NCBI GenBank assembly: GCA_027485855.1 | Contig: JAIXQD010000019.1 | Coordinates: 146,256-210,255, forward strand | DNA: 64,000 nucleotides | Origin: Rickettsiales bacterium | GTDB lineage: Bacteria > Pseudomonadota > Alphaproteobacteria > G027485855 | Reading direction: 5' to 3' | Shown here: positions 1 through 29,731 of the stretch, in pieces | Layout of the letters: each line of letters begins with the position of its first letter | Numbering within the stretch: position 1 is the first letter of the stretch | Made by a program: the position numbers and the translations under genes | Notes under the pieces: model-generated | The model's input: only the letters and a program-made list of their open reading frames with translations | Database searches by the model: none | What the model was told of the DNA's origin: nothing

Positions 1-3000
1 ACTCGTGTTACTTGCCCCCAAAACCACACCACCCGTGCCGGTGCAAAGGCCATCACTATTAAGAGCGCAAATACGCCCATAGGAATATATGCTGGTAGAA
101 GCCTGCATTGTAGCTGCATTAAGGCTAGCCCAGGTGCCAGTGGTGCTGCCAATGTTAATGCTGCCACCCGTAATGGCCACAGCATTAGCATTTTGCGTGG
201 CCATGGTGCCAAGGCCAAGGTTGGTGCGTGCAGTAGCAGCGTCGGATGCACCCGTGCCGCCATTAGCCACAGCCACAATCCCAGTCACATTAGCCGCATT
301 GCCGCTAACATTACCCGTAACATTACCGGTGAGGTTACCCGTAATGGTGCCGCTCACGCCAAGATTGCCAGTAATATTGGTGTTAAGCAGGCTGTTGGTG
401 CCTTCATTTTGCAACAACGAGCCCCAGAAATTGATTTTGCGCTGGGTGTTATCGGTGTTGCTGCCAATAATATTTAAACCCGGGGCAAAGGGTGCGGTGC
501 CAATTACACCATCGTTAGCGTCGCCAAAGCCCGAAGTATTAGTAATTCTCATAACATTGCTCACTTCAAAAGCTCTGGCGGGCGTGCTGGTGCCGATACC
601 CACACGGCCACTGGCAGTCAGCCATAAATTGCCACCCGCGCGCACCGAACTATCCACATCCATGCCAAGGCCGATGGCGCTTGTAGTCCAATCAGTGCCG
701 GTGGCGGTACGCAGGGCCCTTATGCCCAGTGAGCTACTATTTGTGCCTGCTAAAAAGCCAATGCTGGCCAGTGCTAGCTCATTGCCCGCCGTGCCGCCCA
801 AACTGCCCGCATTGGTGCGGAAGGTGGTGCTGGCCGCGCCGCCGCCAAGCTCGGTGCCCGTGGTGCTTACATTAAGCCGTGAAGACGCGCCAATTGTGCC
901 AATACCAACATTACCATTGGTGCCAAAATACATACGCGTTGTGGCCGCGCTGTTTTGATATATATAAAAATCGCGTATGCCAGTGGCGGTAACATCCTGG
1001 CCTAATTGCCAATCGCCCGTTTGCACGCTGGCACGGCGGCTGGTGGCATGCGTACTTTCGATAATGTTCAGCGTGGGGCCACCTATAGATGTGTCAGTGT
1101 GCAGCGTAAGGGCGGTACCGCTGGCAACAGTGCCAAATTGTGCGCGCACCGCACCCGCTACAGTAACATTCACTAAGTTAGAAACCGCCAAAACGCTGGT
1201 GGTGCCGCCGGGGTCAGTAATAGAGTTTATCTGGCTCCCCGCCGTGAGACCTAACCAGCCGCTCGTGCCGCAGCCTTCAAACACGCTGCCTGTCCAACGG
1301 ATAGCGCCACGCTTGGCGGCATTACACCCGCCGGCATCATTGGCCACCTGCACCGCGCCATTGACATGCAAACGGCTGTTAGGCGCTGTGTTGCCAACAC
1401 CAAGATTACCGGCGGTGGTGAGTGTCATCAATTCATTCAGGGTATTTTGCGCTGTGGCATTGCCAGCATAAGAGCCAAAACGAATTGCCACGCTATCGCT
1501 GCTGCGGCCATAAAGCGCGGTTGCCCAACCCGTGCTTTGGCTGCCACCACCGCCCAAATGCAATTCAGTACCGAAAGCGTTATCGGTAAAAAGGCGCAAA
1601 CCTGAATTACGGGCTGTGGCCGAACCGTCGGCACCGCTAAAGAGCAAATCGCCACCGACAACATGCAAACGTGCAAATGGCGAGGGCGTGCCAATACCAA
1701 CATTACCTTGCACAATCATGCCATTGGTGGGATGATTATTGGCATAATCATTCCAAACCGTGAGGCCAGCAACTTTTGCATCCTGTGCCTGATTATTGAC
1801 TGTTCGGAAGCCAAAGAAGGTATTGGAATGCAGCGAACCATTAACAACCTCAACACCGCCATCACTGCGGATGGTCATGCGTCTGGTCATGCTGGCAGCA
1901 TCACCCGCGGGTGTGGTTGAAAAGTCAATGCGTGTGGGTTGCGATAAACCCGCCACAAAATTAGCATCGGCATACATAGTCATGTCGGCGACGCCACGCG
2001 GCCAAGTGGACAAAGCACTTTGACCACGATAAATACCCAAAATATCGCCGCTTTGTGGCTGTGTGGGCGAAGACTCGGTGCCACGAGCAAACGTAGCAAT
2101 ATAGTGAGGCACATTGCCGACACCATAATTTGTATTGCTAATAATACCATGGGTTGTGCTGTTAACTGCACCAATAGCGCCGTTAACGCGCGCATTGCCA
2201 TTTATGGTGGTACCACCATTTATAGTGGTGTTACCACTTTGGTCTATCACGACACGGTCTTGGCCTTCGGTGTTAATACGCACAGTGCCGTCGGTGCCGC
2301 TATCGGTCACACTAATGGCGCTATTGCCCTGCGATATCTGGTTAAATGAGTTGGCTACAGCCGCCCACGTGCCATCACCGCGTAAAAACAAATTAGTTTG
2401 ACCCGCCGCTGGCACTGGCACACCACCACGCGTACCTGCCGAACCGGCCGTGGCACCCGTAAAGGGCGGAATTTCAGTGTTAACAAGGCCGCTGACTGTC
2501 CAAGTGCCACTATTGCGGCGAGCAAAGCCATCGCCCGAGACATCGCTAAACAAATTGGTGCGCGCACCCGCAGCTGTGCTGGCGCCCGTACCACCATTAG
2601 CCACTGCCACAACGCCGGTCACGTTGGTTGAGTTACCGGCAAAGTTGCCGCTAAAGTTCATGCTGGTCACATTAAGCGTGCCAATGGTGGCCGTGGTTAT
2701 GGTGCTGGCCGACACAGGCGAGCCCGCCGTACCCAAAGTGGCGCTGCCGCCGGCAATGGTGCCCGACAAAGTGTTGCCGCTTAAAGTACCGCCGCTAATG
2801 GTGGCGCCAGCGGCCGAAAGCGTGCCGCTTAAAGATGGGTTTAATAAGGTGCTGCCGCTTAAGGTGCCGCCCGCAAAGGTGCCAGTCAGCGTGCCACCAC
2901 CTGCTAAGGTTGCGGCGCCACTGGTATTCAGCGTGGCCGCATTTACGTTTACGCGCGATGCTGTTGTACCAATATTAGCACTGCCGCCACCCAGCAAGCT

Positions 3001-4089
3001 GCCGGTTAATGTAGCGCCCGCGCCAGCAGCAATAGTGGCACCGGTAATAGTGGTGGTCCCGGTCTCTGTAACATTCGTAAGCGTGCTGCCACTTAATGTG
3101 CCGCCGGTAAAAGTGCCCGTAAGCGTACCACCCGCGCTAAAAGTAACCGCGCTATTAGCATCAAGCGACGTAAACGCACCCGTGCTGCGTGTGGTGGCGC
3201 CAATAGTTGCCCCGTTAATAGTGCCGCCGGTAAGGGCCACAGCATTAGCATTTTGTGTGGCTACACTGCCCAAACCCAAAGAGGTGCGTGTGGCGGCTAG
3301 ATCGGTCGCTTGGTTGGCGTCAGCGGTAAAAGTGACATTACCGCCAATTTCGACATTTTGCATAAAGCGCGAGTTACCGGCAACGTCAAGCGGGCGTTGC
3401 GGGTCGCTGGTGCCGATACCAACGTTGACAGCGCTGGGATCAACACCAAAATTAATTTTGCTGTCGCTTTGGCTTTGCCACACATTAGCGCGGCTCACCA
3501 CCTGACCCACATTGAGCGACTCTGCGCGGTCATCACCCACAGCGCTGGTATTGGCGCAGGTGGTTTGCAAAACGCCATCAGGACCAGCGGACATCACCAT
3601 CATCGAGGCAGACGAGGCGTTATTGCGCGAGCGGTCCCAGTTACAATAAACATAATAGCGGCCCCATGGGTCGATCTGCTTCACGCCCGCCACTACCGGC
3701 AACACACCCGTACTTGATGGCGTGCTGCCATTTTGAATGGCGCTAATCCAGCCGGCACTGCCAGTTGTTTGACCCGCAACCGATGGCATGCGCGCCGCTT
3801 CACCGCCGGTGGGCCAAGCCGCCGCATCGATGGTGGCGGGGTATTCTAACTGATTAAGCGAGCCATTAAGAAAGGTGCTGGCGGCCAAACTTTGCGATGC
3901 GGCCAGCAACTGATTGCGCACTTGATTTTCGGAGGTGACTTCAACATTACTGCGCAGCACTTGCGTATAACCGCTAAACAGCACCGCGCCACCAATACCT
4001 GCGAGCGCCAAAATATATAAAATAGGCGCGAGCGCAAAACCAGCTCTCATAGCTAATCTGGGCGAGCGGTTATTTTTTATATTGGGCAT
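1..4089 (-). CDS. Edge-truncated giant ORF (>=1363 codons; C-terminus lies outside the window): prepilin-like leader plus pseudopilin (GspG-like) head fused to phage tail-fibre-like repeats
   Basis: Not in the supplied ORF track. I read the plus strand in triplets from nt 1 and found no tta/cta/tca in that frame until cta at 4126-4128, so the minus frame is open from 4125 to 1. ATG at 4089-4087 is preceded by GGAGG (plus cctcc, 4095-4099). N-terminus: MPNIKNNRSPRLAMRAG|FALAPILYILALAGIGG. Pseudopilin-like DPWGRYYVYCNWD...MVMSAGPDG (about 3565-3675). Tail-fibre motifs: NVTG[VI]VAVANGGTGAS (2581-2640 and 241-300), ATQNANAVA[LI]TGG[TS]IN (about 3200-3260 and 140-200), GVPVPAAGQTNLFLRGDGTW (about 2365-2425), and five G[NR][VL]G[IV]G..P...L.V repeats. 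Confidence 0.8.
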   Translation of the reverse strand, partial: MPNIKNNRSPRLAMRAGFALAPILYILALAGIGGAVLFSGYTQVLRSNVEVTSENQVRNQLLAASQSLAASTFLNGSLNQLEYPATIDAAAWPTGGEAARMPSVAGQTTGSAGWISAIQNGSTPSSTGVLPVVAGVKQIDPWGRYYVYCNWDRSRNNASSASMMVMSAGPDGVLQTTCANTSAVGDDRAESLNVGQVVSRANVWQSQSDSKINFGVDPSAVNVGIGTSDPQRPLDVAGNSRFMQNVEIGGNVTFTADANQATDLAATRTSLGLGSVATQNANAVALTGGTINGATIGATTRSTGAFTSLDANSAVTFSAGGTLTGTFTGGTLSGSTLTNVTETGTTTITGATIAAGAGATLTGSLLGGGSANIGTTASRVNVNAATLNTSGAATLAGGGTLTGTFAGGTLSGSTLLNPSLSGTLSAAGATISGGTLSGNTLSGTIAGGSATLGTAGSPVSASTITTATIGTLNVTSMNFSGNFAGNSTNVTGVVAVANGGTGASTAAGARTNLFSDVSGDGFARRNSGTWTVSGLVNTEIPPFTGATAGSAGTRGGVPVPAAGQTNLFLRGDGTWAAVANSFNQISQGNSAISVTDSGTDGTVRINTEGQDRVVIDQSGNTTINGGTTINGNARVNGAIGAVNSTTHGIISNTNYGVGNVPHYIATFARGTESSPTQPQSGDILGIYRGQSALSTWPRGVADMTMYADANFVAGLSQPTRIDFSTTPAGDAASMTRRMTIRSDGGVEVVNGSLHSNTFFGFRTVNNQAQDAKVAGLTVWNDYANNHPTNGMIVQGNVGIGTPSPFARLHVVGGDLLFSGADGSATARNSGLRLFTDNAFGTELHLGGGGSQSTGWATALYGRSSDSVAIRFGSYAGNATAQNTLNELMTLTTAGNLGVGNTAPNSRLHVNGAVQVANDAGGCNAAKRGAIRWTGSVFEGCGTSGWLGLTAGSQINSITDPGGTTSVLAVSNLVNVTVAGAVRAQFGTVASGTALTLHTDTSIGGPTLNIIESTHATSRRASVQTGDWQLGQDVTATGIRDFYIYQNSAATTRMYFGTNGNVGIGTIGASSRLNVSTTGTELGGGAASTTFRTNAGSLGGTAGNELALASIGFLAGTNSSSLGIRALRTATGTDWTTSAIGLGMDVDSSVRAGGNLWLTASGRVGIGTSTPARAFEVSNVMRITNTSGFGDANDGVIGTAPFAPGLNIIGSNTDNTQRKINFWGSLLQNEGTNSLLNTNITGNLGVSGTITGNLTGNVTGNVSGNAANVTGIVAVANGGTGASDAATARTNLGLGTMATQNANAVAITGGSINIGSTTGTWASLNAATMQASTSIYSYGRICALNSDGLCTGTGGVVLGASNTS

Positions 4090-4218
4090 AGGTGCCTCCG
4101 CAGCATTAAAACCAAGCATTAAATTCTAGCTGTAAGATTAGCCGAAACATGTTAACAAACGGGTAAAGATGCAATTGCGTTAATTTACCTTTGCTTAACC
4201 TTAATGGAGTGTTAAGGA

Positions 4219-5418
4219 ATGAAAACCTACCAAACATTAGCGAATTACACCGCCCAAGATGGCGATATTGTCCTGCTGCGCGCCGATTTGAATGTGCCGG
4301 TAAAAGACGGCGCGGTTAGCGACGACACCCGTCTTGTGCGCCTGTTGCCCACGCTTAAAGCCTTGCAAAACAAAGGGGTGCGGGTGGCGATTTTATCGCA
4401 TTTTGGGCGGCCAAAAGGCGTTGATGTCACGCAATCTTTGCGGCCTGTTGCCGCGCATTTAGCGCAATTACTGCATACAAATATTGCTTTTGCCGAAGAC
4501 TGTATTGGTGACGCACCAAAAAATATTTTGGCAAACCTGCCCCAAGGCGGCCTTTGTGTTTTAGAAAATTTGCGTTTTCATGCCGGCGAAGAAAAAAATG
4601 ACCCCGCTTTTGTGCAGCAGCTGGCCGCTTTGGGCACAGTTTTTGTCAATGATGCGTTTTCGGCCAGTCACAGGGCGCATGCCAGTATTGTTGGTTTGGC
4701 GCAGGCTTTACCCGCTTATGCGGGGCTATTGATGGAGGCCGAACTTACCGCGCTAGACAAGGCCCTTGGCACACCAAAGCCGCCGCTATTGGCGCTGGTG
4801 GGTGGCGCCAAAATATCAACGAAGCTTGAATTACTGGGCAATTTAGTTGGTAAAGTGAATATGCTGGCGCTGGGTGGCGGCATGGCCAACACATTTTTAG
4901 CCGCACAGGGCGTGGCCATGGGTAAATCGCTGGTCGAAGCCGATATGTTGCCGCAAGCCCGCGCCATTATGGCCAAAGCGCAAAGCCAAGGCTGCGAAAT
5001 TATTTTGCCCATCGATGGCAGGGTGGCAAAAAGTTTTAGCGCCGATGCGCCACACCACGAAGTGCGCAATGCCGACATTGCCGCCGATGACATGGTGCTG
5101 GATATTGGCCCACAAAGTATTAGGAATATTATCTTAGCAGTACAGCGCGCTAAAACTGTGCTGTGGAATGGCCCCTTAGGCGCTTTTGAACTGCCGCCCT
5201 TTGCCGTGGGCACCATAAAAGTGGCGGAGAGTGTGGCTGAAGCCAGCAAAGCCGGCACGCTTTTAAGCGTGGCCGGTGGCGGCGATACTGTGGCCGCACT
5301 TGAGGCCGCTGGCACCGTGGCGGACTTTAGCTATGTTTCAACCGCGGGCGGCGCCTTTTTAGAATGGCTTGAGGGCAAAGAGCTGCCTGGCATAAGCGCG
5401 CTTATTCACGCCGCTTAG
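4219..5418 (+). CDS. pgk: Phosphoglycerate kinase
   Basis: 399-aa ORF with PGK hallmarks: LLRADLNVPV, ILSHFGRPKG, and C-terminal STAGGAFLEWLEGKELPG. Confidence 0.97.
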   Translation: MKTYQTLANYTAQDGDIVLLRADLNVPVKDGAVSDDTRLVRLLPTLKALQNKGVRVAILSHFGRPKGVDVTQSLRPVAAHLAQLLHTNIAFAEDCIGDAPKNILANLPQGGLCVLENLRFHAGEEKNDPAFVQQLAALGTVFVNDAFSASHRAHASIVGLAQALPAYAGLLMEAELTALDKALGTPKPPLLALVGGAKISTKLELLGNLVGKVNMLALGGGMANTFLAAQGVAMGKSLVEADMLPQARAIMAKAQSQGCEIILPIDGRVAKSFSADAPHHEVRNADIAADDMVLDIGPQSIRNIILAVQRAKTVLWNGPLGAFELPPFAVGTIKVAESVAEASKAGTLLSVAGGGDTVAALEAAGTVADFSYVSTAGGAFLEWLEGKELPGISALIHAA

Positions 5419-18545: not shown

Positions 18546-19916
18546 TTAGTTGGCGCGCTCATCACGCAAGGTCGCAATATCGGCCGCTTGTTGCTGCACC
18601 ATATGCCGCAGCTCGGCATTTTGTTGCGATAATTCGCGGATCGCTTCAATGACAGGCGCAATCAGATTGCCAATTTCAACGCCCAGCGTGCCGTTGGTAT
18701 CTATGGCGCGCACCAGCTCGGGGAAGGCTTTGGCCACATCTTGCGCAATCACGCCCATATCTGGCCTTTGCCCGTCTTTCCAAATATAGCTGACGCCCTT
18801 GATGGTCAGTAAGCGTGCTAAGGGCGAATTTATGTCTTCGATATTTTCTTTTAATCGGCCATCTGAGGTATAAACAAATGACGTCGCCTGCAAGGTGCCG
18901 GTAAAGGTGCCATCACCACCAGTAATTGTGCCAGCGGCCATGTTTATATTGCCGCCATTCGTGGCAATGTCGCCAGTATTAACAATGCCGCCATTGGCCA
19001 TGGTGAGCGCACCATTTATAATGGCATTACCACTGACATCGAGTGCGCGTGAGGCCACAGTGCCAGCATTAATAATGCGGCCATCTGCCGCGCTGTTCGA
19101 TTGCATATCGATATTGCCCGCTAAAGTAGAAATTGTGCCGCCATTGGTCAGAATGGGGCCGCCCGCCATGGTGATGCCATTGACGCCAGTAAAGAGTAAG
19201 GTTGTTTCCATAGTGTTGAGCGTTTGGGCTGGGTTATCGCTCACCTCATCGAGGCGGTGCAAATAACGCTGCGAGCTAAAGCCCAAATCAGGCGAGTAAA
19301 AACCCACACTCACCAACCGGCCGCTGATTGTGGCGGCCGCCACACCAAATTGTAAAGAGGCTACACAATAGCCGCTAAATGCACCGCTAATACTATCGGC
19401 CGCACAGCGCAGCGCGGGGTTGGCAAACATAGCGCCGCCCGCGGCACCCATTTGCGTTATCATGCTGCCGAGGCGCTGATCTTCGGGGATACCAAAGCCG
19501 GTGCCATTAACCGTGTAAACTAAAACATCAATACGCGTATCGGTGGTGTTATCCTGACGCCGAATAGCAATACGATAATCTTGCCCCTGCACATTGGTAT
19601 AGGTAAAACCAGGCGGCAAATAATTTTGCAAGGCCGCTGTTGTTTGTGCAGCATCTAAAACTATGGGTGCGGCCGTTGTGAAGCCAGCTGTCGCCACCAG
19701 CACGGTGTATTGCGCTTGAATATATGCCTCGGCCGCTCTGTGCACCATCATGTGCTGAGCGGCCATGGCGCTATCTTGCGCTTGGCGGCCCGCATTGGTG
19801 GTGAGCTGCAAAATAGAGGTAATCACCACGCCCGCCACCGCCAGCACAATGGCCATCTCGACCAACGAAAAACCCGCTTTGCTGAGCGCTAATTTGCTAT
19901 GCCAAAAAGCGCGCAT
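18546..19916 (-). CDS. pilV: PilV-position minor type IV pilin with beta-helical repeats and a tail-fibre intramolecular-chaperone (peptidase S74-like) C-terminus
   Basis: Prepilin N-terminus: SKAG|FSLVEMAIVLAVAGVV. Has a G/N/T/I-rich repeat core. The C-terminus is FVYTSDGRLKENIEDI...GVSYIWKD...GVIAQDV...LIAPVIEAIRELSQQN plus a coiled coil (about 18549-18885). Confidence 0.8.
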   Translation of the reverse strand: MRAFWHSKLALSKAGFSLVEMAIVLAVAGVVITSILQLTTNAGRQAQDSAMAAQHMMVHRAAEAYIQAQYTVLVATAGFTTAAPIVLDAAQTTAALQNYLPPGFTYTNVQGQDYRIAIRRQDNTTDTRIDVLVYTVNGTGFGIPEDQRLGSMITQMGAAGGAMFANPALRCAADSISGAFSGYCVASLQFGVAAATISGRLVSVGFYSPDLGFSSQRYLHRLDEVSDNPAQTLNTMETTLLFTGVNGITMAGGPILTNGGTISTLAGNIDMQSNSAADGRIINAGTVASRALDVSGNAIINGALTMANGGIVNTGDIATNGGNINMAAGTITGGDGTFTGTLQATSFVYTSDGRLKENIEDINSPLARLLTIKGVSYIWKDGQRPDMGVIAQDVAKAFPELVRAIDTNGTLGVEIGNLIAPVIEAIRELSQQNAELRHMVQQQAADIATLRDERAN

Positions 19917-20509
19917 TATGTGCCCCCATCAAGGATTGCCGCTTCGCCAGCTTCAAGCGGTGGTGTAAGCGTGATGCCGCTGACTTCTGATAAATCTATG
20001 TTGCTACTGAGCGCAAAGCCATTGCTGGCGGGGTCGTAGGCAAAAACATCCATGGTGAAGGCCGTGCCGGTATCTTCTAGCATGCCATATTGTACGCTAC
20101 GCCCCATGATACGCTCAAGCTCGCTGACTAAATCGCCACCCAGATATTGCGCAAAATTAGCTTGCGGCTCGCCGTTCGCATCAAGCGTGATAACATTGCT
20201 ATAAGTAAAAGTGTGCCGCGTGCCGCCGCGATTAAACGCCACCGAAAACCATAAATTATTATTGACCCCGCCCGGCCCATAAAGCGGCAAAATTAAAGCG
20301 GGGTCGAGCACTTGCACATCGCCTGGGTTAGCGACAATCACCGGATTTGCCCCAACGGCAGCCATGGCGGATTGATGCCAGCGCACCATTTGCTGGCCAT
20401 AAATTGTGGGTGGGTTAAGGCTTTGCCGCGCTAAAACATCGCTGGTGACTGTAACCAGCACGCCGCTGCTGATGGCAAGCAACAAAGCAATAAAAGCAAC
20501 TGCAAACAT
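19916..20509 (-). CDS. Membrane-anchored pilus-associated protein (possible non-canonical minor pilin)
   Basis: 197 aa with the N-terminus MFAVAFIALLLAISSGVLV. GGAGGG RBS upstream. Shares an ATGA-type 1-nt overlap with the pilV-like start. Confidence 0.5.
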   Translation of the reverse strand: MFAVAFIALLLAISSGVLVTVTSDVLARQSLNPPTIYGQQMVRWHQSAMAAVGANPVIVANPGDVQVLDPALILPLYGPGGVNNNLWFSVAFNRGGTRHTFTYSNVITLDANGEPQANFAQYLGGDLVSELERIMGRSVQYGMLEDTGTAFTMDVFAYDPASNGFALSSNIDLSEVSGITLTPPLEAGEAAILDGGT

Positions 20510-20611
20510 GCTTTATCCCTCCTGCCCGCCAAAAAATAAATGCCCAAAAATAAGCGCTCAAAAATATAAACTGGGCCCAAAAACTTTGCCCGATACCAAA
20601 ATATCAGCACA

Positions 20612-20652: not shown

Positions 20653-20693
20653 ATAGTTTTACGCAACCAGCAATGCTGCCTTAACAGCAAAGC

Positions 20694-21305
20694 CTAGCGA
20701 ATAAAGAAGCGCCAAACCACATCAGCCGTTGCTGTGCCACAATCGGTGGCAATCGCAGCGGGGCTGAAGGCAGCATCAATAGCGGCTTGGTCGGCAAGAC
20801 CGGCTAAAACAATTTCAGCGCCTGTGCCTGCGGTAATACCAACAAGGCCCACATCGGCGCCAAGGTTGCGGGCGCGCGTGGCCAGCTCAATGCAAGCCGC
20901 ACCCGGAATGCCGGTCATGCTGACGGTGAACTCATTCACCGATGTGCCCGCATCAACCGAAAGCGTGGTAGCACCACCCCAAGCGGTGGTGGCGTTAGTG
21001 GCATCGACAATCATGTCGGCGGGGATAACCCGTGCCGCAATCATCGCCGCCGTATTAAGGCCGGCTGAAGTATTGGAGCCGGCATAAAGATTGCGCACGC
21101 CTTGCACAATTTGCAGCAGCTGCTGGTGACCTTTGGTTTCGCGCATATTTTCGTAAACGCTCGCGGCGGCAATCCAGATACCGCCGACAACCAAGCCAAC
21201 GATGGCCAGCACGATGGCCGCCTCAATGAGGTTAAAACCACGGCGCAGCAGCGACACCGATTTATCTTGGTTCTTCTGCAATTGAACACGAGACAGTAAA
21301 CGCAT
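20694..21305 (-). CDS. pilS: Type IVb major prepilin (PilS-like)
   Basis: Has a 23-aa basic leader ending RRG|FNLIEAAIVLAIVGLVVGG, and a C-terminal Cys pair (AACIEL...ATDCG) consistent with a D-region disulfide. Confidence 0.8.
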   Translation of the reverse strand: MRLLSRVQLQKNQDKSVSLLRRGFNLIEAAIVLAIVGLVVGGIWIAAASVYENMRETKGHQQLLQIVQGVRNLYAGSNTSAGLNTAAMIAARVIPADMIVDATNATTAWGGATTLSVDAGTSVNEFTVSMTGIPGAACIELATRARNLGADVGLVGITAGTGAEIVLAGLADQAAIDAAFSPAAIATDCGTATADVVWRFFIR

Positions 21306-21459
21306 AGCAGCCCCTCATCTAGTTGAATAAAAATCAATTGAAATTACGAATAGCATTATCGCCTGTTAGGGTAAATAAACCTTTAAGCCGTTGCTTGTCG
21401 ATTCATTATATTTATTACGCTATTGTTATGTGCTTTTTACGGCACGGCTAAGATATTGA
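21306..21459 (-). promoter_or_regulatory. AT-rich region upstream of pilS; candidate internal promoter
   Basis: 154-bp gap in an otherwise tightly packed operon. A minus-strand TATAAT lies at 21405-21410 and a GAGGGG RBS precedes the ATG. I found no convincing -35 element. Confidence 0.35.
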
Positions 21460-22536
21460 CTAAAACTTGCCGCCACCACCAGAGCTGAGTGTGGTGGTAA
21501 TGCCCACAATGCTGGATAGGGCCCAAGCAATAATGGCACCCACACAGCCCAAACCAACATAACGCACAATTTGGGCCTGACTGCGTAGTTTATCGATTTG
21601 CTCGCGCATCCACTCATCGGTGACTTTGCGCAGCACATCGGCCACATCCGAACGCTCGGACAGAATTTCTAAATCAAGTGCCAGCTGCGGGTCGGGGAAG
21701 TTGTAGTTGGTTTGCCGCAAAGCCTCACCTAAATTGCGCCCGCGCATCACTTCTTCGCGCGTGGCGGCAATGCGTTGCTTGAGCCACGGGTTAGCCTGCA
21801 CCTCGAGCACTTCTAAGGCACGCTTAAGCGACACTTGCGCTTGCAACAAAGCCGACATGGACAACAAAAACGCACTGCCCTGCCACAAGCGATACCATGA
21901 CCAAGGCGGGAACATATCAAACATCGCACGCACATGCCCGCGCCAAACCGGCATGAGCATGGCAAGGCCAACCATGAGGCCAATAACAAACACCAGCGTC
22001 AGCAAGCCCCATGAGCGAATATAATCGGACACACTGGCAAGGCTGCCCATGCTGGCAATCACTTGTGGTGGGGCCATTTGCCGCATTGGCTCAATCATAT
22101 TGACACCAAACAACCACAACACCGCCCCCAACAGCATCAGCATAAACACCGGATACCCGACGGCTTGAATAATAGCGCCCTTCATTTCTTTGCTGCGGTC
22201 GCCCATTTCAAGAATCTGTTGCATGGCCAGCGCAACTTGCCCCGCTTCTTCGCCCGCTTTTATCATGAACAACTCAGACAGCGGCACCCAGCCCACCATG
22301 GCTTCAGACAGGCTCTCACCCGCACGGTCACGCTCAAACCATTCTTTGAGCGCCAAAGCTGCGGCCTTGCGCGGATAGCGCCCGCGCTCGGTGACATTAT
22401 TGTAAAGCCGCTCAAGACAGCGCGACAGCGCCTCATTCATGGCCATCATGCCTTGCAGCTTGCGATAAATGCGAAAACGCTCGCTGCGATTAAGCCGAAA
22501 ACTGAGCTGCGCCAGACTGCGTGCCGTATCTACCAT
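21460..22536 (-). CDS. pilR: GspF/PilC-family platform protein (PilR-like)
   Basis: 358 aa with the GspF-type topology (three TM segments). Located downstream of the ATPase gene with a 7-nt overlap. Confidence 0.82.
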   Translation of the reverse strand: MVDTARSLAQLSFRLNRSERFRIYRKLQGMMAMNEALSRCLERLYNNVTERGRYPRKAAALALKEWFERDRAGESLSEAMVGWVPLSELFMIKAGEEAGQVALAMQQILEMGDRSKEMKGAIIQAVGYPVFMLMLLGAVLWLFGVNMIEPMRQMAPPQVIASMGSLASVSDYIRSWGLLTLVFVIGLMVGLAMLMPVWRGHVRAMFDMFPPWSWYRLWQGSAFLLSMSALLQAQVSLKRALEVLEVQANPWLKQRIAATREEVMRGRNLGEALRQTNYNFPDPQLALDLEILSERSDVADVLRKVTDEWMREQIDKLRSQAQIVRYVGLGCVGAIIAWALSSIVGITTTLSSGGGGKF

Positions 22537-24458
22537 GAACCCCCCATGCCTAGAAGGCTCTCAACATCTTTAAGGCCGCGATCGCTAATGAGTGGCCCCA
22601 GCTCAAACTCGGCATCTTGTGGGGCAACTTCGCCCTTACGAATTTTATAAAGCGCGTGACCGGCCATGGTAATACCATTAAGGCCATGCGGGCTAAGCCA
22701 GTATTTGCGCGCATCTTCCATGCGGTTTTCAGACAGCAGCGCCATCAGGCGCATATCGGTTTCAATCACCTCGGCCGCAATGGTGCGGCCCACCCGCCCC
22801 TTAAAACAATGGCGGCAGCCCTCAATATTAGGAAAAAATACCTCTGACAGATCGGGCTCGCGCAAGCGGTTGAGCGGGTCGGATAATTCATCGGCTTTGG
22901 GGTCGCGCTCGGCATCAAGCAAGGCCAGCGCGGCCCTGATACGGCGCGCCAAAGGATCAAGCTCGGGGCTATCGGCCACGGCTTTTTTAAGCGGAATGCG
23001 GCAATGCGGGCAAAGCTGACGCATGAGACGCTGACACATCATGCCTTTGACCAAATGATGGTCATAAACCAAATAAGGCTCTAGCCCCAAATCGCGCAGA
23101 CGCTGCGGCACCGCAATGGCCGAATAAACGTGCAAGGTGGTGTACACCTGCCGCCCCGTGAGCGCCAAACGAAACAGAAAATTCGCCGTGGTTAAATCGC
23201 GGGTTTCGCCCAACATCACAATATCGGGGTCAAGGCGCAAGGCCGAGCGCATAATTTCAATGAAGGTTTTTTCGCGCATTTCATCTTTAGCGCTGGCGGC
23301 CACGCCAATTTGCCGCGCCCCTAAAACGCCGCCTTCGGGCGGGTCTTCAATCATAAGGCAGTTCAATTGGTAATTGGTCTCGGCCATGCGCCGATTAAGC
23401 ATCACCCGCAAGGTGGTAGTTTTACCTTGGTTAACCGGGCCGGTAATAATGCGCATACCGCCCGGCGTGTTACGCAAGCTGCGCACCGCCTCCATTTGCT
23501 CGGGCAAAAAACCCAGCTGGTCAACATCGGCCGCCATAAAATTGGCCCCAAAAATATGCAGGCCATCATATTGCAAGCGCATATCAAGATAGCGCCCACC
23601 ATCAGCCAGCGGCATCCATTGGCAGCGCACGCTTAAAATACCATCGGGAAACTGAATAGCATCAAGGCCGCTTTGTGGCACCAGCATGGCCGCCATGGGC
23701 TCTAGCCAATTTGCGGTGGCGCCCGACTGCACCGATGAGTGCGAATAAACCGATGAGAGAAACTGGTCGCCCTCGCGCTGGGTCCAGGTTTCCCACAGGC
23801 GCAAGGCACCATCAACCCGAAACTCAACTTTGGTACGGCCGGCGCTGGCCTCGATGTGAATATCGTTGGCGCCAAACTCTTTGGCTTTTTGCAAAGTCTC
23901 ATTTATTTTACGGCGAACCGAGTTATCATCTTGTTTGCTTGATGAGACGGCACGCTCGGCATAAAAATAGGCCTGCCGAATAATATCGGGCGTCACATAG
24001 GTTGGGTCATTAACCCGAAAACCCTGCCGCCGCGCCGACACCGCAACCGAAGTAATCAGCGGCGAGTTTTTATGGCTTTCTGACACCAGCCACATGCCAC
24101 TATCGAACAACACGCAAAGACCGCGAGAGTCGGGTGCAATTTTGAGCGGCCCATTGGGCGAGGTTAAAACCTGCCCCACAAAAATAATGCGCTTATTGCC
24201 ACCGCCATCGGTGGTCATTTCCTCGGCGGCGCGGTCTGGCTCGGCGACGGGCGCGGCGGCCTCGATGGCGGCTTGTTCTTTGGTTGGCTGTTCTTTGTTA
24301 TCTTTATTGGGATTATTTTTATTGCCGGCGCCGGCCAATGCAGGATTCTTTTTGCGCTCGCCGCTGTTGCTACTGGCTTTTTTTGGGTTAAGCGCGGCCT
24401 TAGCTGATGCCTCGCCACTCATGAGATTGCTCAGTTTTTGCATCAACCCATCAAACAT
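22530..24458 (-). CDS. pilQ: GspE/PilB-family assembly ATPase (PilQ-like in R64 nomenclature)
   Basis: Has Walker A GPVNQGKTTT, DPDIVMLGETRD, and the tetracysteine CPHC...CRHC. The N-terminus is K/N/A-rich and low-complexity. Confidence 0.9.
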   Translation of the reverse strand: MFDGLMQKLSNLMSGEASAKAALNPKKASSNSGERKKNPALAGAGNKNNPNKDNKEQPTKEQAAIEAAAPVAEPDRAAEEMTTDGGGNKRIIFVGQVLTSPNGPLKIAPDSRGLCVLFDSGMWLVSESHKNSPLITSVAVSARRQGFRVNDPTYVTPDIIRQAYFYAERAVSSSKQDDNSVRRKINETLQKAKEFGANDIHIEASAGRTKVEFRVDGALRLWETWTQREGDQFLSSVYSHSSVQSGATANWLEPMAAMLVPQSGLDAIQFPDGILSVRCQWMPLADGGRYLDMRLQYDGLHIFGANFMAADVDQLGFLPEQMEAVRSLRNTPGGMRIITGPVNQGKTTTLRVMLNRRMAETNYQLNCLMIEDPPEGGVLGARQIGVAASAKDEMREKTFIEIMRSALRLDPDIVMLGETRDLTTANFLFRLALTGRQVYTTLHVYSAIAVPQRLRDLGLEPYLVYDHHLVKGMMCQRLMRQLCPHCRIPLKKAVADSPELDPLARRIRAALALLDAERDPKADELSDPLNRLREPDLSEVFFPNIEGCRHCFKGRVGRTIAAEVIETDMRLMALLSENRMEDARKYWLSPHGLNGITMAGHALYKIRKGEVAPQDAEFELGPLISDRGLKDVESLLGMGGSW

Positions 24459-24526
24459 AAATTGCCTATCGGTTGCGAAAAAATTTTATGCGAAAAAGTT
24501 TTAATGGCGCGAGCACCAACCACACG

Positions 24527-25462
24527 CTAATTTTTATCAAGGGTAACGGTTTGCTCTTTGCCCTTACTATTGCGCAAAACTACGCTATCGGCAGAGATGG
24601 ACACAATTTGCTGACCATCAGCCAAACTATCGCCAATGCCGACATTTTTGCGCTCGCCGCCACTGCTGACGGTGGCCCGCAGCGAACCTTCAGCCCCTGA
24701 AATGCGCTCAATTTCAACTTTGCCCTCGGGGTTGCGGCGCGGCGAAATGGTGGGCGCAATATTTGCCGATGAATTAAAAGACGGCGAAATATTGGTGGAA
24801 ACGCTCTGCGGATTTGATGGTGCAGGCGGTGGCGGTAAGGGCGTAAGCGAACTGGCTGGCACTGCCGGAATGCCCGATAAGCCACCCGCGCCACCAAAAG
24901 AGGGGCGAGATTTTTGCTCACGCGCATCACGAATTTTGCTGATCTCAGTAAGTTGTTTTTCAATACTGTTCAAAATCTCAAGGCGCTTTAAGGCGTCTTC
25001 AGCGGCGGCGATATCATCAAGGCTGATGCGCGATTGGTCGTTGCGCAGGCGCTCGAGCACTTTATTGACGGCAGCAATATCTTCGGCCGAGCGCGCTTTA
25101 CTGCCGCCAGCTTGAGCGGTTGCGCTGCCGGTATTAGCACTGCCAGCATTCGGCATGCTGGGCACAGCCCCTTGCGTTGCCAAAGGCTTGCCCGCGCCAT
25201 CAAGCAACACAGCTGAGGCGCTGTTGCTGGCGCTATTATTTGTGCTTGTTACTGTGCTGGGGCTGGCGCTATCGGCAGTTGAATTTTTTTCATCGGTCAG
25301 GCTTGGTGCAGGCGGCGGCAATTTTGCTTGCGGCACCTGGGCTAAAGCCGCGCTGCTCAAAAACGCCAGCAGCGTACAACCACCCAACATTAAAATGAGT
25401 TTATGGCCAATAAGTTGATGGCCAATGAGTTTATGGCTGGGTATGGGTTTAGCGCATTTCAT
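24527..25462 (-). CDS. pilP: PilP-like pilus biogenesis protein
   Basis: Has a signal/TM segment, a long Ser/Ala/Pro linker, and a C-terminal beta domain (RATVSSGGERKNVGIGDSLADGQQIVSISADSVVL). Start chosen at MKCAKP. Confidence 0.6.
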   Translation of the reverse strand: MKCAKPIPSHKLIGHQLIGHKLILMLGGCTLLAFLSSAALAQVPQAKLPPPAPSLTDEKNSTADSASPSTVTSTNNSASNSASAVLLDGAGKPLATQGAVPSMPNAGSANTGSATAQAGGSKARSAEDIAAVNKVLERLRNDQSRISLDDIAAAEDALKRLEILNSIEKQLTEISKIRDAREQKSRPSFGGAGGLSGIPAVPASSLTPLPPPPAPSNPQSVSTNISPSFNSSANIAPTISPRRNPEGKVEIERISGAEGSLRATVSSGGERKNVGIGDSLADGQQIVSISADSVVLRNSKGKEQTVTLDKN

Positions 25463-26702
25463 AAATAACCCCTTCTGTCTTCCACGAACCATTAGACCAG
25501 CTGATGCTTTCAATCACAAAGCCGGGTAGGCCCGCATAGCCTTGCCACTGGTGCCATGGTGCAGTGTCGCTGTTTAAGGTAACTTTTCTCTTAACCCATG
25601 GCGGCGGCGGGGGTGGAGCCGGCTGCCCTTGCCTTGGTGGCGGGGGGGGCGGCTCGACCACAGGTTTAAGCGCGGCCCGCCAGTTGCGCCGCAGGGCAAT
25701 TTGCGTGACATCATCTTTGTTTAAAATAACTTCGGTGCCGCGACGAGTGAGGTTTTCTAAGGTAAATTGGCTATTGGCACGCGATTGGCTATCATCCATG
25801 CGGGCATTGGGCGGCACAATGGCCACGCCCGATGTACGCGACCATTCAACGCTTAAAGTGCGCCCCGCACAGGAAAAAGTGGCCAAATTCCACCCCGCCA
25901 TAACCACCGGCACATTTTTCATGGCTTCGCGGCAGGCAGTCATAAAAATTTCAGGCGATGGGGCATCTTCCCAAACACGCTTGGGCGGCTCGGGCAAATT
26001 GGCCTGTGGCAACAACGTAGAGGGCACAGTTTGCAGCCCTTCGCGCAGCCTTTGCTCGCGGGCCTTTTGGCTATTTCTGCGCTCAAGCGCCACTTGTGCG
26101 GCATCGCGCTCGCGTTGCCATTGCAGGCCAGCATAAGCCAGCCCACCCACCACCAAAACGCCCAGCAGCACAAACAAAATGATATTGCGCGGTATGGTAA
26201 CAGGACGCAAAATACCGCTCGACCGGCCTTGCAACAAGAGCGAGAGCGGCACGGGATCGGCGCCCGGAATGGTCCAGCTATCGGGCGCATAAATACGCTG
26301 CAAGCCGCCCAAGCCAATTTCGTGCATGAGACGCTCACGCGCCTCACGCTCATCGGCATAAAGATGGTCGCCATCGGGCGCAATCAGGTCATCGCGAACA
26401 ACGCAAACCCAATAGCCTTCATCTAAACGAAAAGCGCCAACCCACGAGCCGGGCTGCTGGTCGGCCATGCTGGCAGCACCCGTGGGCATGCCTTGGCGAT
26501 GCCCATAGGATTTTTGCCCTAAACCAAATTGTGCCACCCGGCCACTTTTGGTGGCACCCCTTACGGCAAAATAATCGGCTGGTTGCCCTTGCTGACGGGC
26601 GGCCTCACGCGCGGCTTGTGCCACGCGCCCTGATGGGCTGGGCTGCCAATAAAGGCCAACCGCAAATTTGCGCCGCCCAATGCTGACGACACCGCCCGCC
26701 AT
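25449..26702 (-). CDS. pilO: PilO (type IVb, PilO2-like) protein
   Basis: Has the N-terminus IGRRKFAVGLYWQPS characteristic of R64/PAPI-1 PilO, one central TM helix, and a poly-Pro segment. Confidence 0.7.
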   Translation of the reverse strand: MAGGVVSIGRRKFAVGLYWQPSPSGRVAQAAREAARQQGQPADYFAVRGATKSGRVAQFGLGQKSYGHRQGMPTGAASMADQQPGSWVGAFRLDEGYWVCVVRDDLIAPDGDHLYADEREARERLMHEIGLGGLQRIYAPDSWTIPGADPVPLSLLLQGRSSGILRPVTIPRNIILFVLLGVLVVGGLAYAGLQWQRERDAAQVALERRNSQKAREQRLREGLQTVPSTLLPQANLPEPPKRVWEDAPSPEIFMTACREAMKNVPVVMAGWNLATFSCAGRTLSVEWSRTSGVAIVPPNARMDDSQSRANSQFTLENLTRRGTEVILNKDDVTQIALRRNWRAALKPVVEPPPPPPRQGQPAPPPPPPWVKRKVTLNSDTAPWHQWQGYAGLPGFVIESISWSNGSWKTEGVIYEMR

Positions 26703-26705
26703 CGC

Positions 26706-28340
26706 CTAGCCTCGCGATTCAGCAGATGGCTGACCGATATCGACCTCTTGCGGCGTAATCGAGATAAACAACATGCGCCGCGATTCGGTATTAGCATTTC
26801 TGCCGCCCAACAACATGTTAAACGGGCTGCCAACGCCCGAGCGGTCTTGGGTGATGTCGTTTTGATCGACGCCGCTCAGCACCAAAGTTTGCCCACTTTG
26901 CAACATGGCTTGCTGCACAAAAATGCGGCTGGCGGTTTCGGGCAACTGAATAGACGAGCTATTTTGACCCGTGCCCGATGAAAAGGGCTCAATGCCCAGC
27001 AAATCAATCACCGACAGCGAATATTGCAGCAAAATACGGCCATCATCCAAAATGCGCGGCGTGAGCTGCAAAGAATAACCCTGCCGAATAATGCCAGGCT
27101 CAAGTGACGTGCTTTGGAAACTTTGCGAAGTGCTGGTTTCAACACTGGCAAGATAAGCGCGGTCAACACCAATGCGCCGCGTGGCGGGGCGGTTATTCAG
27201 TGTGGTTACGGGCAATTGCGCCACGCGTGACACTTTGCCCTTCGTGGCCAAAGCACGCAATACCGCATCACTGCCCGTGGTCGCGCGGTTGCGCCCCAGA
27301 ATTGTCACGCCAAGCCCGCCCGCGCGTTCGGCGGCTGAAACGCCAGGGATAGTTGCGCCCGTCCACTCAAAGCTGGGGAAGTTGCTGGTTTGCCGCACAA
27401 TGGCGTTTAGGTCGAAGTTGAAATCGACATCGTCGTTGAGATCAAGGCTAAACACCTCAACATTAATGGCCACCTGCTTGGTGAGCTGCACATTTTGGTC
27501 GTCAATAAAACTGGCCACCTGGCGCATGATTTCGGGCGTGGTGATAACCGTAACTGTACCCGTAGACGGCGCCACCTGGAACGAACCCACGCCGCCCAAA
27601 ACGGCCTGCATGGTTTTTTCAAGCTCGCTCCAAAACTCAATTTTAGCGGATAAATCGGCGCTTTGTTTAATGCCGCCACCATTATTACTGGCCGTGGTGC
27701 CGCCGCCTTGCACGCCGCCCTCAAGCTCGCCGGTTAAGCCATCGGTGATTTCAACCGTGCCGGGCATGGAGTAAATGGTAAAAATGCGCGTTTCGAAGCG
27801 CGAGAAAACAATGGCTGCGCCATCATAGCGCCACGACAGACCAAAATTACCCGCCACACGCTCGAGCAAGCCCGACAGCGGGCCTTGCCATTGTATGGGC
27901 ATGGCATCGTTATTATTGGCCGCACCCGCGGCTGGACGTGAAGCACCACCCACAGCGCCCGCTCTTGGGGCGGCGGCCGCAGTATCGGCGCCATCAGCGA
28001 GGCGCACCGGAATGCGGCTTTGCTGGGCGATTTCGTCGGCAATTTCGCGCAAAGTTAATGGCTTTGCCGAAGACAGCACAAACGCATTGGTTGTTTCAAA
28101 GCGCTCGGGCAGGGCTTGGCCACGGCGCGTGCGCACCGCTTTTTGCCCCGTCCACACCTGATCGGTGATTTGCAGCGAATCATGGCGCACGATTTCGGCG
28201 GGGCGCTTGGCGGTATCAACTTCGGTCACGGCCGTTTTTTGCCGCTGCTCAAAATCGCGGTCAAGGCGCTCAGTGTTGCAGGCCGCCAAAGTTGCAGCGG
28301 CCAGAACCAGCGATAGCCCCAGTGATAGGATTTTTTTCAT
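26706..28340 (-). CDS. pilN: Secretin lipoprotein (PilN-like)
   Basis: Begins MKKILSLGLSLVLAAATLAAC (lipobox) and has a C-terminal secretin domain (LVLSGVDQNDITQDRSGVG...LFISITPQ). GGAGAG RBS lies before the ATG at 28340. Confidence 0.85.
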   Translation of the reverse strand: MKKILSLGLSLVLAAATLAACNTERLDRDFEQRQKTAVTEVDTAKRPAEIVRHDSLQITDQVWTGQKAVRTRRGQALPERFETTNAFVLSSAKPLTLREIADEIAQQSRIPVRLADGADTAAAAPRAGAVGGASRPAAGAANNNDAMPIQWQGPLSGLLERVAGNFGLSWRYDGAAIVFSRFETRIFTIYSMPGTVEITDGLTGELEGGVQGGGTTASNNGGGIKQSADLSAKIEFWSELEKTMQAVLGGVGSFQVAPSTGTVTVITTPEIMRQVASFIDDQNVQLTKQVAINVEVFSLDLNDDVDFNFDLNAIVRQTSNFPSFEWTGATIPGVSAAERAGGLGVTILGRNRATTGSDAVLRALATKGKVSRVAQLPVTTLNNRPATRRIGVDRAYLASVETSTSQSFQSTSLEPGIIRQGYSLQLTPRILDDGRILLQYSLSVIDLLGIEPFSSGTGQNSSSIQLPETASRIFVQQAMLQSGQTLVLSGVDQNDITQDRSGVGSPFNMLLGGRNANTESRRMLFISITPQEVDIGQPSAESRG

Positions 28341-28439
28341 ATTGACTCTCCGCTCCACCAAAACCCCGAACCCCCGAAAGAAGCCCCAAAGAAACCCACT
28401 ATAAAACGCACCACAAAGCGCACCATAAAGTTCTGCGGC

Positions 28440-29501
28440 CTAACGGCCATACTGGTTACCGCGCGTGGTAATCACCAACACTGCTTGTCCAGCGGTGCTG
28501 TTTTTATGCAGGCGGCCCATTGGTTGTGGCTCAGCATCAGCTAAGCCTGCCAGCATTTGCCGCAACGCATCTTCATAAGAGCCGGTATAGGCCGAGGTGG
28601 CTTGTAGCGGATAGTCATATTCAGCGTCCCAGCTGAGCTCGACGCCGGCTTTATCCGACCAATTTTGCAACACGCTTTTTAACGTATCGCCGCGCTCGGC
28701 CCGCCACACATATAAAGCTGTGCTGCTGTCGCCCTCAATGGTGGTGGGGCTGGACAGCGCCGCATTTTCGCCCTCGATCAAGAGCGGGGCGGCGTCGCCC
28801 TCAATCACGGCGGCGCCATTAAGCGCATCGGTGCCACTTATTGGCATAGGATTATTTTCATAGGCGGGCAAGACGCCCAAAATGCCCGAGGTGCTGCCGC
28901 CCATAGTCGCTTTAGGCGTAAGCGTCATGGGTGTGGCATCAGGCCCTGTGGCGCTGAGCTGGTCATAGCTGGTGGCGGCCGCGCGTGGTGGCACAAAGGC
29001 CTCACCCGCGCGGGCAATATTGACCATGCCGGTGGCGAAGCTGGCCGACAAACCCACAGATGACAGGCTTTGTTGCAAAACATTTTGCCAGGATTGCCCA
29101 CCACGCCAGCTGACCAGCGTGCCCAAATCAACCGACTCGGCGACCGAAAAACCATGATCGGGCGGCACCACTTGCCGCAACATGGCGCCCAGTGGAATGC
29201 GATTGGCAAAACCCTCTAAGATGGCGCCATCGCTGGCAACACCACTAGCCGAAAGCGCAGGCGCAGTAAGTGGCTGCGGCACAACAGCCATGCTGGGTGA
29301 TGACATAACTGGCGGTAAATTATTTTGCGACCCAGCTAAAGGTAGAGGCTGCGGCAAACGACCAGAGCTGGCATTATTTTGCGCATCAGGCGGCACTAAT
29401 TTAAAACCCGCTTGCGCTGGTGCCACAAGGCAAAGACAAAATAACGCCGCAACAGCACCGCTTAAAAATTTTTGTTTTATGTACATTTTGAAAACAGGCA
29501 T
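28440..29501 (-). CDS. pilL: PilL-like protein with a TcpQ-type C-terminal domain
   Basis: Has a signal peptide and the C-terminus LYVWRAERGDTLKSVLQNWSDKAGVELSWDAEYDYPL, which resembles the PilL/TcpQ family. The start could be 29543, 29501 or 29486. Confidence 0.7.
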   Translation of the reverse strand: MPVFKMYIKQKFLSGAVAALFCLCLVAPAQAGFKLVPPDAQNNASSGRLPQPLPLAGSQNNLPPVMSSPSMAVVPQPLTAPALSASGVASDGAILEGFANRIPLGAMLRQVVPPDHGFSVAESVDLGTLVSWRGGQSWQNVLQQSLSSVGLSASFATGMVNIARAGEAFVPPRAAATSYDQLSATGPDATPMTLTPKATMGGSTSGILGVLPAYENNPMPISGTDALNGAAVIEGDAAPLLIEGENAALSSPTTIEGDSSTALYVWRAERGDTLKSVLQNWSDKAGVELSWDAEYDYPLQATSAYTGSYEDALRQMLAGLADAEPQPMGRLHKNSTAGQAVLVITTRGNQYGR

Positions 29502-29731
29502 GACCACTCCGGCAAAATGTAAAACGCTGTCGCTTGCAAGCACCAGTAAAAGCTGATTCGTGCATGAAAGCAGTTAATATATTGTTTTGACAGAACAGTG
29601 GCTGCCAGACAATGGCTAAAAGCCTTTAGCCCCGATACAGATGTCGCTCGTGACTTAACTGCACCATGCAGCGGGCAAAACCGGCAATCAGAGAGCTGGC
29701 CAGAAAACTGCCCGCAAAAAAGCCGCACAGT

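Follow-up and report, generated by a model that had tools for sequence, protein, structure and literature searches.

The minus strand at the start of the 64,000-nt stretch of Rickettsiales bacterium contig JAIXQD010000019.1 analysed here (the window) carries the 5' part of a giant gene. We lean towards reading its product as a giant modular pseudopilin, probably a long-reach adhesin on a pilus-like filament, in which a pilin-like N-terminal domain is followed by a long repetitive stalk and a C-terminal Peptidase_S74 domain.

A sequence-only reading of this DNA had proposed an open minus-strand frame from position 4125 to the window edge, and translation bore this out: the frame is free of stops from 4125 to base 1, and at the 55% G+C of the window (stop frequency ~0.039 per codon) a run of 1375 stop-free codons would occur by chance at about 1e-24. 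The start codon is the ATG at 4089-4087, preceded by the Shine-Dalgarno sequence GGAGG (4099-4095) with a 5-nt spacer; a promoter scan of the 129-bp spacer to the divergent pgk gene found nothing. A profile search yielded P0034, an NCBI protein of 3284 aa that is identical to the window translation at 1363 of 1363 residues and is encoded on an NCBI contig (306,152 bp) that also encodes the pgk, gap, rplS, rpsP, PilV-like and PilQ-like proteins of the window. Because P0034 is identical over the window part and comes from the same contig as these other proteins, we conclude that the gene is intact, about 9.85 kb long and without a frameshift, its remainder lying beyond the window edge; the sequencing error that might have introduced a frameshift or stop was not found at any of the 1363 positions. 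The gene had been described as missing from the list of open reading frames (ORFs); the frame is real, but its absence has a trivial cause, since the list omits ORFs that run off an end.

The N-terminal domain and its family

A search with the whole protein returned 17 distant giant proteins, 12 of which have the same N-terminal domain or its DPWG motif, and a word-indexed search with the N-terminal domain alone (first 217 aa) gave two fragments and nothing more. When an alignment of 11 sequences (A1) was used as the query of an exhaustive profile search, it gave a family of 559 cluster representatives at an expectation value (E) of <=1e-3, 141 of them at E<=1e-30. The domain stands at or near the N-terminus in every full-length match, in proteins of up to 5301 aa. 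No Pfam family was assigned to it in the window protein or in any of 50 members, a literature search found no publication describing it, and it has no relative in 2.9 million viral contigs or in BFVD. Judged by these sequence comparisons, the first 217 aa define an undescribed family, carried by uncultured Alphaproteobacteria that in part bear the label Micavibrio. When one genome per species was scanned, family members turned up at 41 loci, in metagenome-assembled genomes (MAGs) with the labels Alphaproteobacteria, Rhodospirillaceae, Rhodomicrobium, Pseudomonadota, Micavibrio or 'Bdellovibrionales' (NCBI places Micavibrio under Bdellovibrionales), and one MAG holds three copies (L036, L037 and L040); a metagenome scan added 43 further loci. 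The Ffh protein of the window has no match above 70% identity, and its named relatives carry the same MAG labels as the family.

The leader ending in AG/F (the slash marks the junction), the mature start FALAPILY with proline at +5 and the block DPWGRYYVYCNWD...MVMSAGPDG were all found where the sequence-only reading had placed them. Residues at each position of the domain were counted in 50 diverse family members. Glycine is present at −1 in 50/50 members, with arginine dominant at −2 and −3, and phenylalanine at +1 in 48/50; glycine at +14 is likewise invariant (50/50), tyrosine occupies +24 in 42/50, and positions +1 to +21 are hydrophobic or small. Gly −1, Phe +1, Gly +14 and Tyr +24 are what we take to be the hallmark positions of PilE/PAK-type pilins. 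At +5 there is proline in 43 members, alanine in five, and methionine and threonine in one each. Leaders ahead of the Gly-Phe junction are mostly 5-50 aa long. The domain has in common with type IV pilins a basic leader that ends in Gly −1, and Phe +1 with ~20 hydrophobic residues after it. The hydrophobic half of the predicted alpha-1 helix covers residues 18-40. Conservation reaches 3.2 bits per column at residues 21-40, compared with 3.4 for the best head motif; the alpha-1N segment is thus as conserved as the best motif of the head, unlike an ordinary signal peptide or anchor, and no part of the family is better conserved than the N-terminus. Cys149 and Cys178 of the head are invariant in the family alignment, as expected for an exported head domain.

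Comparison with known profiles pointed to pilins and to GspG. When the profile of a 50-sequence family alignment (A2) was run against 177,635 PDB sequences there were two matches, both to Geobacter PilA-N pilins (E 0.1 and 0.26), which align in register so that the Gly-Phe junction and Gly14 coincide. T2SSG was the only Pfam family matched by more than one member (11/50, best E 0.0018, all below the 21-bit gathering threshold), and the matched region pairs the motif DPWG..SAGxDG with profile positions 66-105; a Pfam rescan of ten members, which recovered one T2SSG match, served to locate this region. In hhalign, A2 aligned with four solved GspG sequences over 31 columns of the DPWG..SAGxDG block (35% identity, E 6.4e-4) and with EpsG over the leader and alpha-1N (E 0.0027), the two matches being colinear and in the correct order. 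In the window gene DPWG is encoded at 3672. An AlphaFold2 (AF2) model built from the 50-sequence alignment (predicted local distance difference test score, pLDDT, 86; predicted template modelling score, pTM, 0.75) has a continuous helix over residues 20-70 (block pLDDT 94-97) followed by 6-7 strands, of which those at 147-150 and 161-167 coincide with the DPWG..SAGxDG motif. A search of the better AF2 model against BFVD with Foldseek gave no match below E 1.

Two candidates were set aside. The sole PDB match of profile A1, an antibody, was a coincidence at DPWG. Tad pili are common in Alphaproteobacteria, and a TadG/CpaL-type minor pilin was considered; it was dropped, as Pfam 'Tad' (PF13400) was found among the matches of 0/50 members.

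The best single piece of evidence that this N-terminus is one of type IV filament subunits comes, in our view, from a metagenomic locus, L079. Positions 2802-13093 of L079 form a tight same-strand operon between dnaB and an MmeI-type restriction enzyme gene, which encodes in order a secreted Ig-like protein, T2SSE (E 9.6e-78), T2SSF (E 5.8e-15), two unassigned proteins, two proteins of ~200 aa and, last, a 1037-aa family member ending in S74. The two ~200-aa proteins begin EKG/FAIGPILLIV and ERG/FAIGPILMVI, both with proline at +5, and the family hidden Markov model recognises their N-termini (E 2e-7 and 7e-5). The operon showed neither a secretin nor a peptidase.

The stalk and the C-terminal chaperone

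Between the N-terminal domain and the C-terminus lies a repetitive, beta-rich stalk of ~2900 residues, and residues 1650-3100 of P0034 contain long internal repeats. The motif GGTGAS..ARTNLGLG..ATQNANAVAITGG is encoded near positions 261, 2595 and 3290 of the window, and the stalk also has G.VP.P..FLRGDGTW and several copies of GNVGIGT..P..RLHV. A stretch of 65 residues (1235-1299) matches a solved phage tail fibre, 7z47_D (E 1.2e-5), the motif GGTGA..NLG being common to both, and phrog_4302, a PHROG of unknown function, is matched at residues 542-579; Pfam and NCBIfam scans of the window fragment gave nothing useful. The sequence-only reading had described more than 1000 aa of phage tail-fibre repeats. 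The motifs are present, but residues 219-1363 match only 2/50,697 phage genomes and the tail-fibre match is limited to the 65 residues, so that a phage origin of the stalk is not supported.

The same reading had predicted a C-terminal Peptidase S74 chaperone, and one was found: beyond the window, P0034 has Peptidase_S74 (PF13884) at residues 3134-3184 (E 1.2e-12; 48.3 bits against a cut-off of 22). Its S3134-D-A-T-L-K3139 corresponds to SDxxxK, the Ser-Lys catalytic motif of S74 domains (PMC10769870). PHROG tail-fibre families match P0034 in this S74 C-terminal part only. The phage relationship, as judged by these matches, is therefore clear for the S74 module and is seen at the motif level only for the stalk.

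Within the giant gene a 77-nt direct repeat (154-230 and 3214-3290; 77% identical, 3060 nt apart) encodes the motif ATQNANAVA(I/L)TGG, and it could be a substrate for in-frame recombination in the stalk. No inverted repeats of the shufflon type were found in positions 1-4200 of the window.

Gene neighbourhoods in the window and in relatives

In the window, the giant gene is divergent from pgk, which is followed by an aminotransferase gene, rplS, trmD, rimM, rpsP, ffh, ftsEX and gap. These 13 kb of housekeeping genes, from pgk to gap, separate it from an R64-type type IVb pilus cluster, the sole type IV filament machinery seen in the window (Table 1). In the region 18546-32514 the thin-pilus set comprises TcpQ-like, secretin, PilO, T2SSE, T2SSF and PilS genes, a 197-aa ORF between the PilS and PilV-position genes that has no family assignment, and the PilV-position pilin gene itself. 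It adjoins genes for a TraJ/DotB-like ATPase, TraI (T4SS_TraI, E 4.5e-76) and DotD, with gap on one flank and the flagellar genes flgI, fliK and flgD on the other. The S74 domain of the PilV-position protein has the catalytic motif SDGRLK and is 41% identical to that of the giant protein. The claim that the two genes have the same architecture holds for the plan of pilin N-terminus, fibre and S74, but the PilV-position protein has the canonical prepilin signal GFSLVE, unlike the giant protein. Since the window encodes PilS and PilV prepilins and no Peptidase_A24 (prepilin peptidase) gene was found among the window ORFs scanned, the peptidase that they need is probably encoded elsewhere in the genome. 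Near the PilV-position gene no shufflon repeats were found, the only inverted pair being one of 16 nt.

Table 1. Features of the giant gene and of the pilus cluster (window coordinates)
Feature	Position	Strand	Basis
5' 4089 nt of the giant gene (aa 1-1363 of 3284 codons)	1..4089	-	Open frame, P0034 identity
Shine-Dalgarno GGAGG of the giant gene	4095..4099	-	Read from sequence
Basic leader, aa 1-17 (MPNIKNNRSPRLAMRAG), last residue the invariant Gly (−1)	4039..4089	-	50-member alignment
Predicted alpha-1 helix, aa 18-70; mature N-terminus FALAP, Pro +5, Gly +14, Tyr +24	3880..4038	-	
N-terminal domain head, aa 71-217: beta strands after a variable loop	3439..3879	-	Alignment, predicted secondary structure
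GspG-like block DPWGRYYVYCNWD...MVMSAGPDG, aa 140-172	3574..3672	-	T2SSG matches, hhalign
First 1146 stalk residues, Gly/Thr/Ser/Asn-rich, aa 218-1363	1..3438	-	Translation
PilV-position minor pilin, GFSLVE signal and C-terminal Peptidase_S74	18546..19916	-	N_methyl, TIGR02532, PHROG tail-fibre families
R64-type type IVb pilus genes	20694..29543	-	PilS, T2SSF, T2SSE, PilO, secretin, TcpQ-like

Other genes of the window were noted in passing. The transfer region encodes on the minus strand (35840-38137) a 765-aa protein with a C-terminal domain like that of the type VI secretion system protein VgrG3 (E 1.5e-19); an SLT transglycosylase gene lies at 33900-34394, and several neighbouring ORFs (38556-43613) lack a Pfam family. 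The window has a further giant ORF, of 1613 aa (53684-58525, minus strand), which is unrelated to the giant gene and encodes an ordinary signal peptide, Cys-rich repeats TEDRTSTPCPSGQAGTITERRT.NVGN.CG.NG.W..VSNTC and a low-complexity tail of Asn, Thr and Ser.

The neighbourhood survey of relatives covered 87 loci, some of which are duplicated between collections. The genes conserved around the members in the 41 genome loci are of the housekeeping kind, namely those for a DUF2336 protein, apt, a D-Ala-D-Ala carboxypeptidase, leuS, rpsD and cheY/cheZ. The genes for the DUF2336 protein and adenine phosphoribosyltransferase, in some cases with cheY-cheZ, lie upstream of the member in 20 loci (within L003-L039; for example L044:6755-9816); the window gene does not share this synteny, its neighbour being pgk. 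In complete loci nothing related to pili was found downstream of the member. Type IV filament genes lie nearby in five distinct loci (L079, L078, L003/L045, L047 and L059). A prepilin-peptidase-like gene, identified by eye, and a GspE/PilB-type ATPase gene lie 3 kb upstream of the member in L078, and a canonical PilS-type pilin gene lies 1-9 kb upstream in L003/L045, L047 and L059, the order in the last being pilS, a helix-turn-helix (HTH) gene and the family member.

HTH proteins are encoded just upstream of some members as separate ORFs (L059:920-1417 and L078:4525-5301), and are fused in frame to the members P0008, P0010, P0011, P0026, P0029, P0044 and P0159, which gives these proteins 'leaders' of 140-198 aa. 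HTH_23 was matched in P0159 (E 2.5e-10) and HTH_50 weakly in the other six. A dedicated regulator, a genuine fusion and a product of gene-calling read-through are all possible readings of the HTH protein; the last two are both considered because the HTH is a separate upstream ORF in L059 and L078. Directly downstream of some members are other giant proteins (L044:15745-25505, at least 4592 aa; L009:13570-14792; L013:16826-19237; L013:20310-20621), which combine an ordinary Sec signal with another conserved N-terminal block, C(T/S)xPxGxAGDxI(Y/F)SSxxNxM.YCNGTxW. There are therefore, in these genomes, two or more classes of giant fibre that differ in their N-terminal modules.

Mechanism, alternatives and relation to known systems

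The domain composition of the giant protein is established; its cleavage, trimerisation, tip location, export route and target we infer. The leader would stay in the cytoplasm, the helix would insert into the inner membrane and all that follows it would lie outside, and a prepilin peptidase encoded elsewhere in the genome would cut after Gly17. Three chains would trimerise from the C-terminus and, by analogy with the established behaviour of S74 domains, the chaperone would cleave itself off before Ser3134 to leave a trimeric fibre. Bd3182 of Bdellovibrio, with 782 residues, is ~550 Å long (PMC10769870), and scaling from it at 0.7 Å per residue suggests a fibre of ~0.2 µm. The three pilin modules would prime or cap a type IV filament, as does homotrimeric CofB, which sits at the tip of type IVb pili (PMC6048534). 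Growth of the filament would then push the fibre through a secretin, turning it into a long-reach adhesin. A tip subunit has no subunit above it, and proline at +5 might be tolerated there; the tip pseudopilin GspK also lacks Glu5. The filament might be that of a dedicated system with Pro +5 in all its pilins, as in L079, or a PilS-type type IVb pilus. The target would probably be another cell, because several relatives are found in MAGs labelled Micavibrio, an epibiotic predator.

A number of observations weigh against a pseudopilin. The Glu +5 of class III signal peptides is absent from the family (0/50); the window protein matches neither N_methyl (PF07963) nor TIGR02532, and N_methyl is missing from the Pfam matches of the 50 members at E<=10. 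The window protein gave no T2SSG match even at E 0.1, the PDB pilin matches and the hhalign matches are individually weak, and Foldseek searches of two AF2 models against the PDB returned no pilin and no match below E 1, because of which we do not claim a pilin fold. One sub-clade has an extension of 140-198 aa ahead of the Gly-Phe junction, which is far longer than any prepilin leader known to us. No filament assembly genes flank the giant gene in the window, and apart from the five loci described above none of the 87 has a gene for a type IV filament at 10 kb or less from the member; the member in L079 is the most divergent (30% identity) and lies on an unrelated contig of 62% G+C. Finally, the folding in the periplasm and the passage through a secretin of a fibre of 3 x 3100 residues are hard to account for. 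Several of these points also speak for the alternative that the N-terminus only resembles a prepilin, being a Sec signal cleaved by signal peptidase I near GIGGA/VLF or an uncleaved anchor, with the conserved 200-residue domain docking the fibre to a component of the envelope and no pilus involved. That alternative is favoured further by the small residues (G-x-A/G) that follow the first 15-17 hydrophobic residues, by the presence in the same genomes of other giant fibres that pair a plain Sec signal with a conserved N-terminal domain of another kind, and by the mosaic adhesive trimer (MAT) fibres, which follow such a plan (PMC10769870). It does not readily explain why the Gly-Phe junction and Gly +14 are invariant or almost so and Tyr +24 nearly so, at ~3.2 bits per column among proteins of 30-45% identity, why the predicted helix runs unbroken to residue 70, why the only PDB matches of A2 are pilins aligned in register and the T2SSG matches recur, or why small proteins with the same N-terminus are encoded beside T2SSE and T2SSF in L079. 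Because the fold is unconfirmed and most loci have no pilus neighbours, a mere look-alike nevertheless keeps about a quarter of the probability. The sequence-only reading had preferred a pilin head to an ordinary anchor and had likened its core to GspG. The former is upheld by the hallmark positions, the 50-residue helix with its strands and L079, but not by the Foldseek comparison; for the latter the block is present, and is matched by T2SSG in 11/50 members and by hhalign, but not by T2SSG in the window protein itself.

We consider it improbable that the R64-type thin pilus encoded at 18.5-29.5 kb uses the giant protein as an alternative tip adhesin to select conjugation recipients in the way that PilV does. 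PilV of R64/IncI is a minor pilin of the thin, PilS-type pilus, and its C-terminal part decides the choice of the cell that is bound. It is encoded last in the pil operon, diversified by the Rci recombinase and sfx repeats, and ~450 aa long, none of which applies to the giant gene. The thin pilus is the sole filament machinery seen in the window and adjoins transfer genes of the TraJ, TraI and DotD types, its PilV-position protein has the pilin-fibre-S74 plan with a 41% identical S74 domain, and PilS-type genes occur near members in L003, L047 and L059. However, the giant gene lies 14 kb from the pil cluster, behind the pgk to gap housekeeping genes, and not in the position of a pilV gene; the thin pilus already owns a canonical Glu5 minor pilin; the family stands in conserved housekeeping synteny and not with transfer genes; and L079 points to separate machinery with Pro5 pilins. 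With neither the position of the gene nor shufflon-like inverted repeats to support it, the proposed link to the thin pilus is not supported, and R64-style recognition of recipients by the giant protein is possible at most. Far less credible is a tail fibre of a prophage, tailocin or contractile injection system. The C-terminal S74 part does match PHROG tail-fibre families, the GGTGA..NLG motif is held in common with a solved phage tail fibre, and NCBI names one relative a 'tail fiber domain-containing protein'; yet no phage genes flank the gene in the window or members in the loci whose neighbours were examined, the N-terminal domain is without relatives among viral contigs or in BFVD, the stalk finds almost no counterpart in phage genomes, and virion fibres do not have a membrane-spanning N-terminus with a basic leader.

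A pseudopilin with a giant appendage has partial precedents. The catalogue of modular pilins of Raynaud et al. (2021) lists the architecture IPR012902-IPR030392 (pilin signal plus S74), reads the S74 module as a peptidase and not as a device for fibre trimerisation, and cites 860 aa as its largest case (PMC8179133). The PilV-position gene is a straightforward case of it. Like modular type IV pilins, which are expected at the filament tip, the giant protein would join a pilin-type module to a non-pilus functional module and S74, but its Pro +5 N-terminus fails IPR012902/PF07963, it has 3284 aa instead of 860, and its head domain is a family of its own. Surveys based on IPR012902/PF07963 would miss it because it has Pro instead of Glu at +5. 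We assign it to neither PF07963 nor PF08334 and regard it, from its domains, as a putative variant of the modular pilins. With GspG (PF08334; 3fu1, 3gn9, 5wda and 3g20) it shares Gly-Phe, a hydrophobic alpha-1N with Gly +14 and DPWG-x-Y-x-Y...S-x-G-x-DG, in the same order; it differs in its sub-cut-off matches, in having no Foldseek match and no Glu5, and in a loop between helix and motif that is ~40 residues longer, and GspG, at ~140 aa, has no appended module. CofB and TcpB are type IVb minor pilins that act as homotrimeric tip initiators (PMC6048534, PMC5207764). Their combination of a pilin domain with homotrimerising beta-rich domains at the tip is a precedent for three pilin modules with one trimeric appendage; CofB, unlike the giant protein, has a canonical type IVb pilin fold, is encoded in a pilus operon, lacks S74 and has an appendage of two domains instead of ~2900 residues. 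The MAT fibres of Bdellovibrio have a conserved N-terminal domain proposed to dock to an envelope component (Caulton et al., 2024; PMC10769870). They resemble the giant family in being multi-copy, long, trimeric, tail-fibre-like adhesins with variable C-terminal parts and a conserved N-terminal domain, many of them with an S74 containing SDxxxK. They differ in having an ordinary signal peptide, ~800-1000 aa and a beta-rich N-terminal domain of 130 aa without a known partner, and in belonging to another phylum, the two N-terminal domains being told apart here by their descriptions.

The genome paper on Micavibrio aeruginosavorus ARL-13 reports a type II secretion system in whose annotation GspC, G, H and K are missing (PMC3189940). 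Non-canonical pseudopilins such as those of the Pro +5 family might fill this gap; ARL-13 was not among the family loci found. More generally, Glu5 has been treated as a near-universal assembly residue of type IV pilins, and surveys with N_methyl, IPR012902 or PilFind-type tools depend on it. If our reading is true, a Pro +5 family of several hundred proteins together with L079 would mean that motif surveys miss a class of type IV filament subunits, and modular pilins would be extended from appendages of a few hundred residues to fibres of 3000-5000. It would also raise the mechanistic question of how a trimer that an S74 chaperone nucleates from the C-terminal end could leave the cell through a pilus machine. 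L079, with an ATPase, a platform protein, two small Pro5 pilins and a Pro5 fibre-pilin, holds the set for a filament made wholly of Pro5 subunits, and it suggests the bolder, and to us doubtful, proposal of a branch of type IV filament systems with Pro +5 in every pilin, which would extrude S74-matured trimeric adhesins of 1000-5000 residues in uncultured Alphaproteobacteria. If that were so, these cells would bind other cells with a phage-type tail fibre mounted on a pilus. We know of no attachment factors of epibiotic predators. The family, whose carriers include relatives of such predators, is a candidate counterpart of the Bdellovibrio MAT fibres, and one with a surface anchor that may be identifiable.

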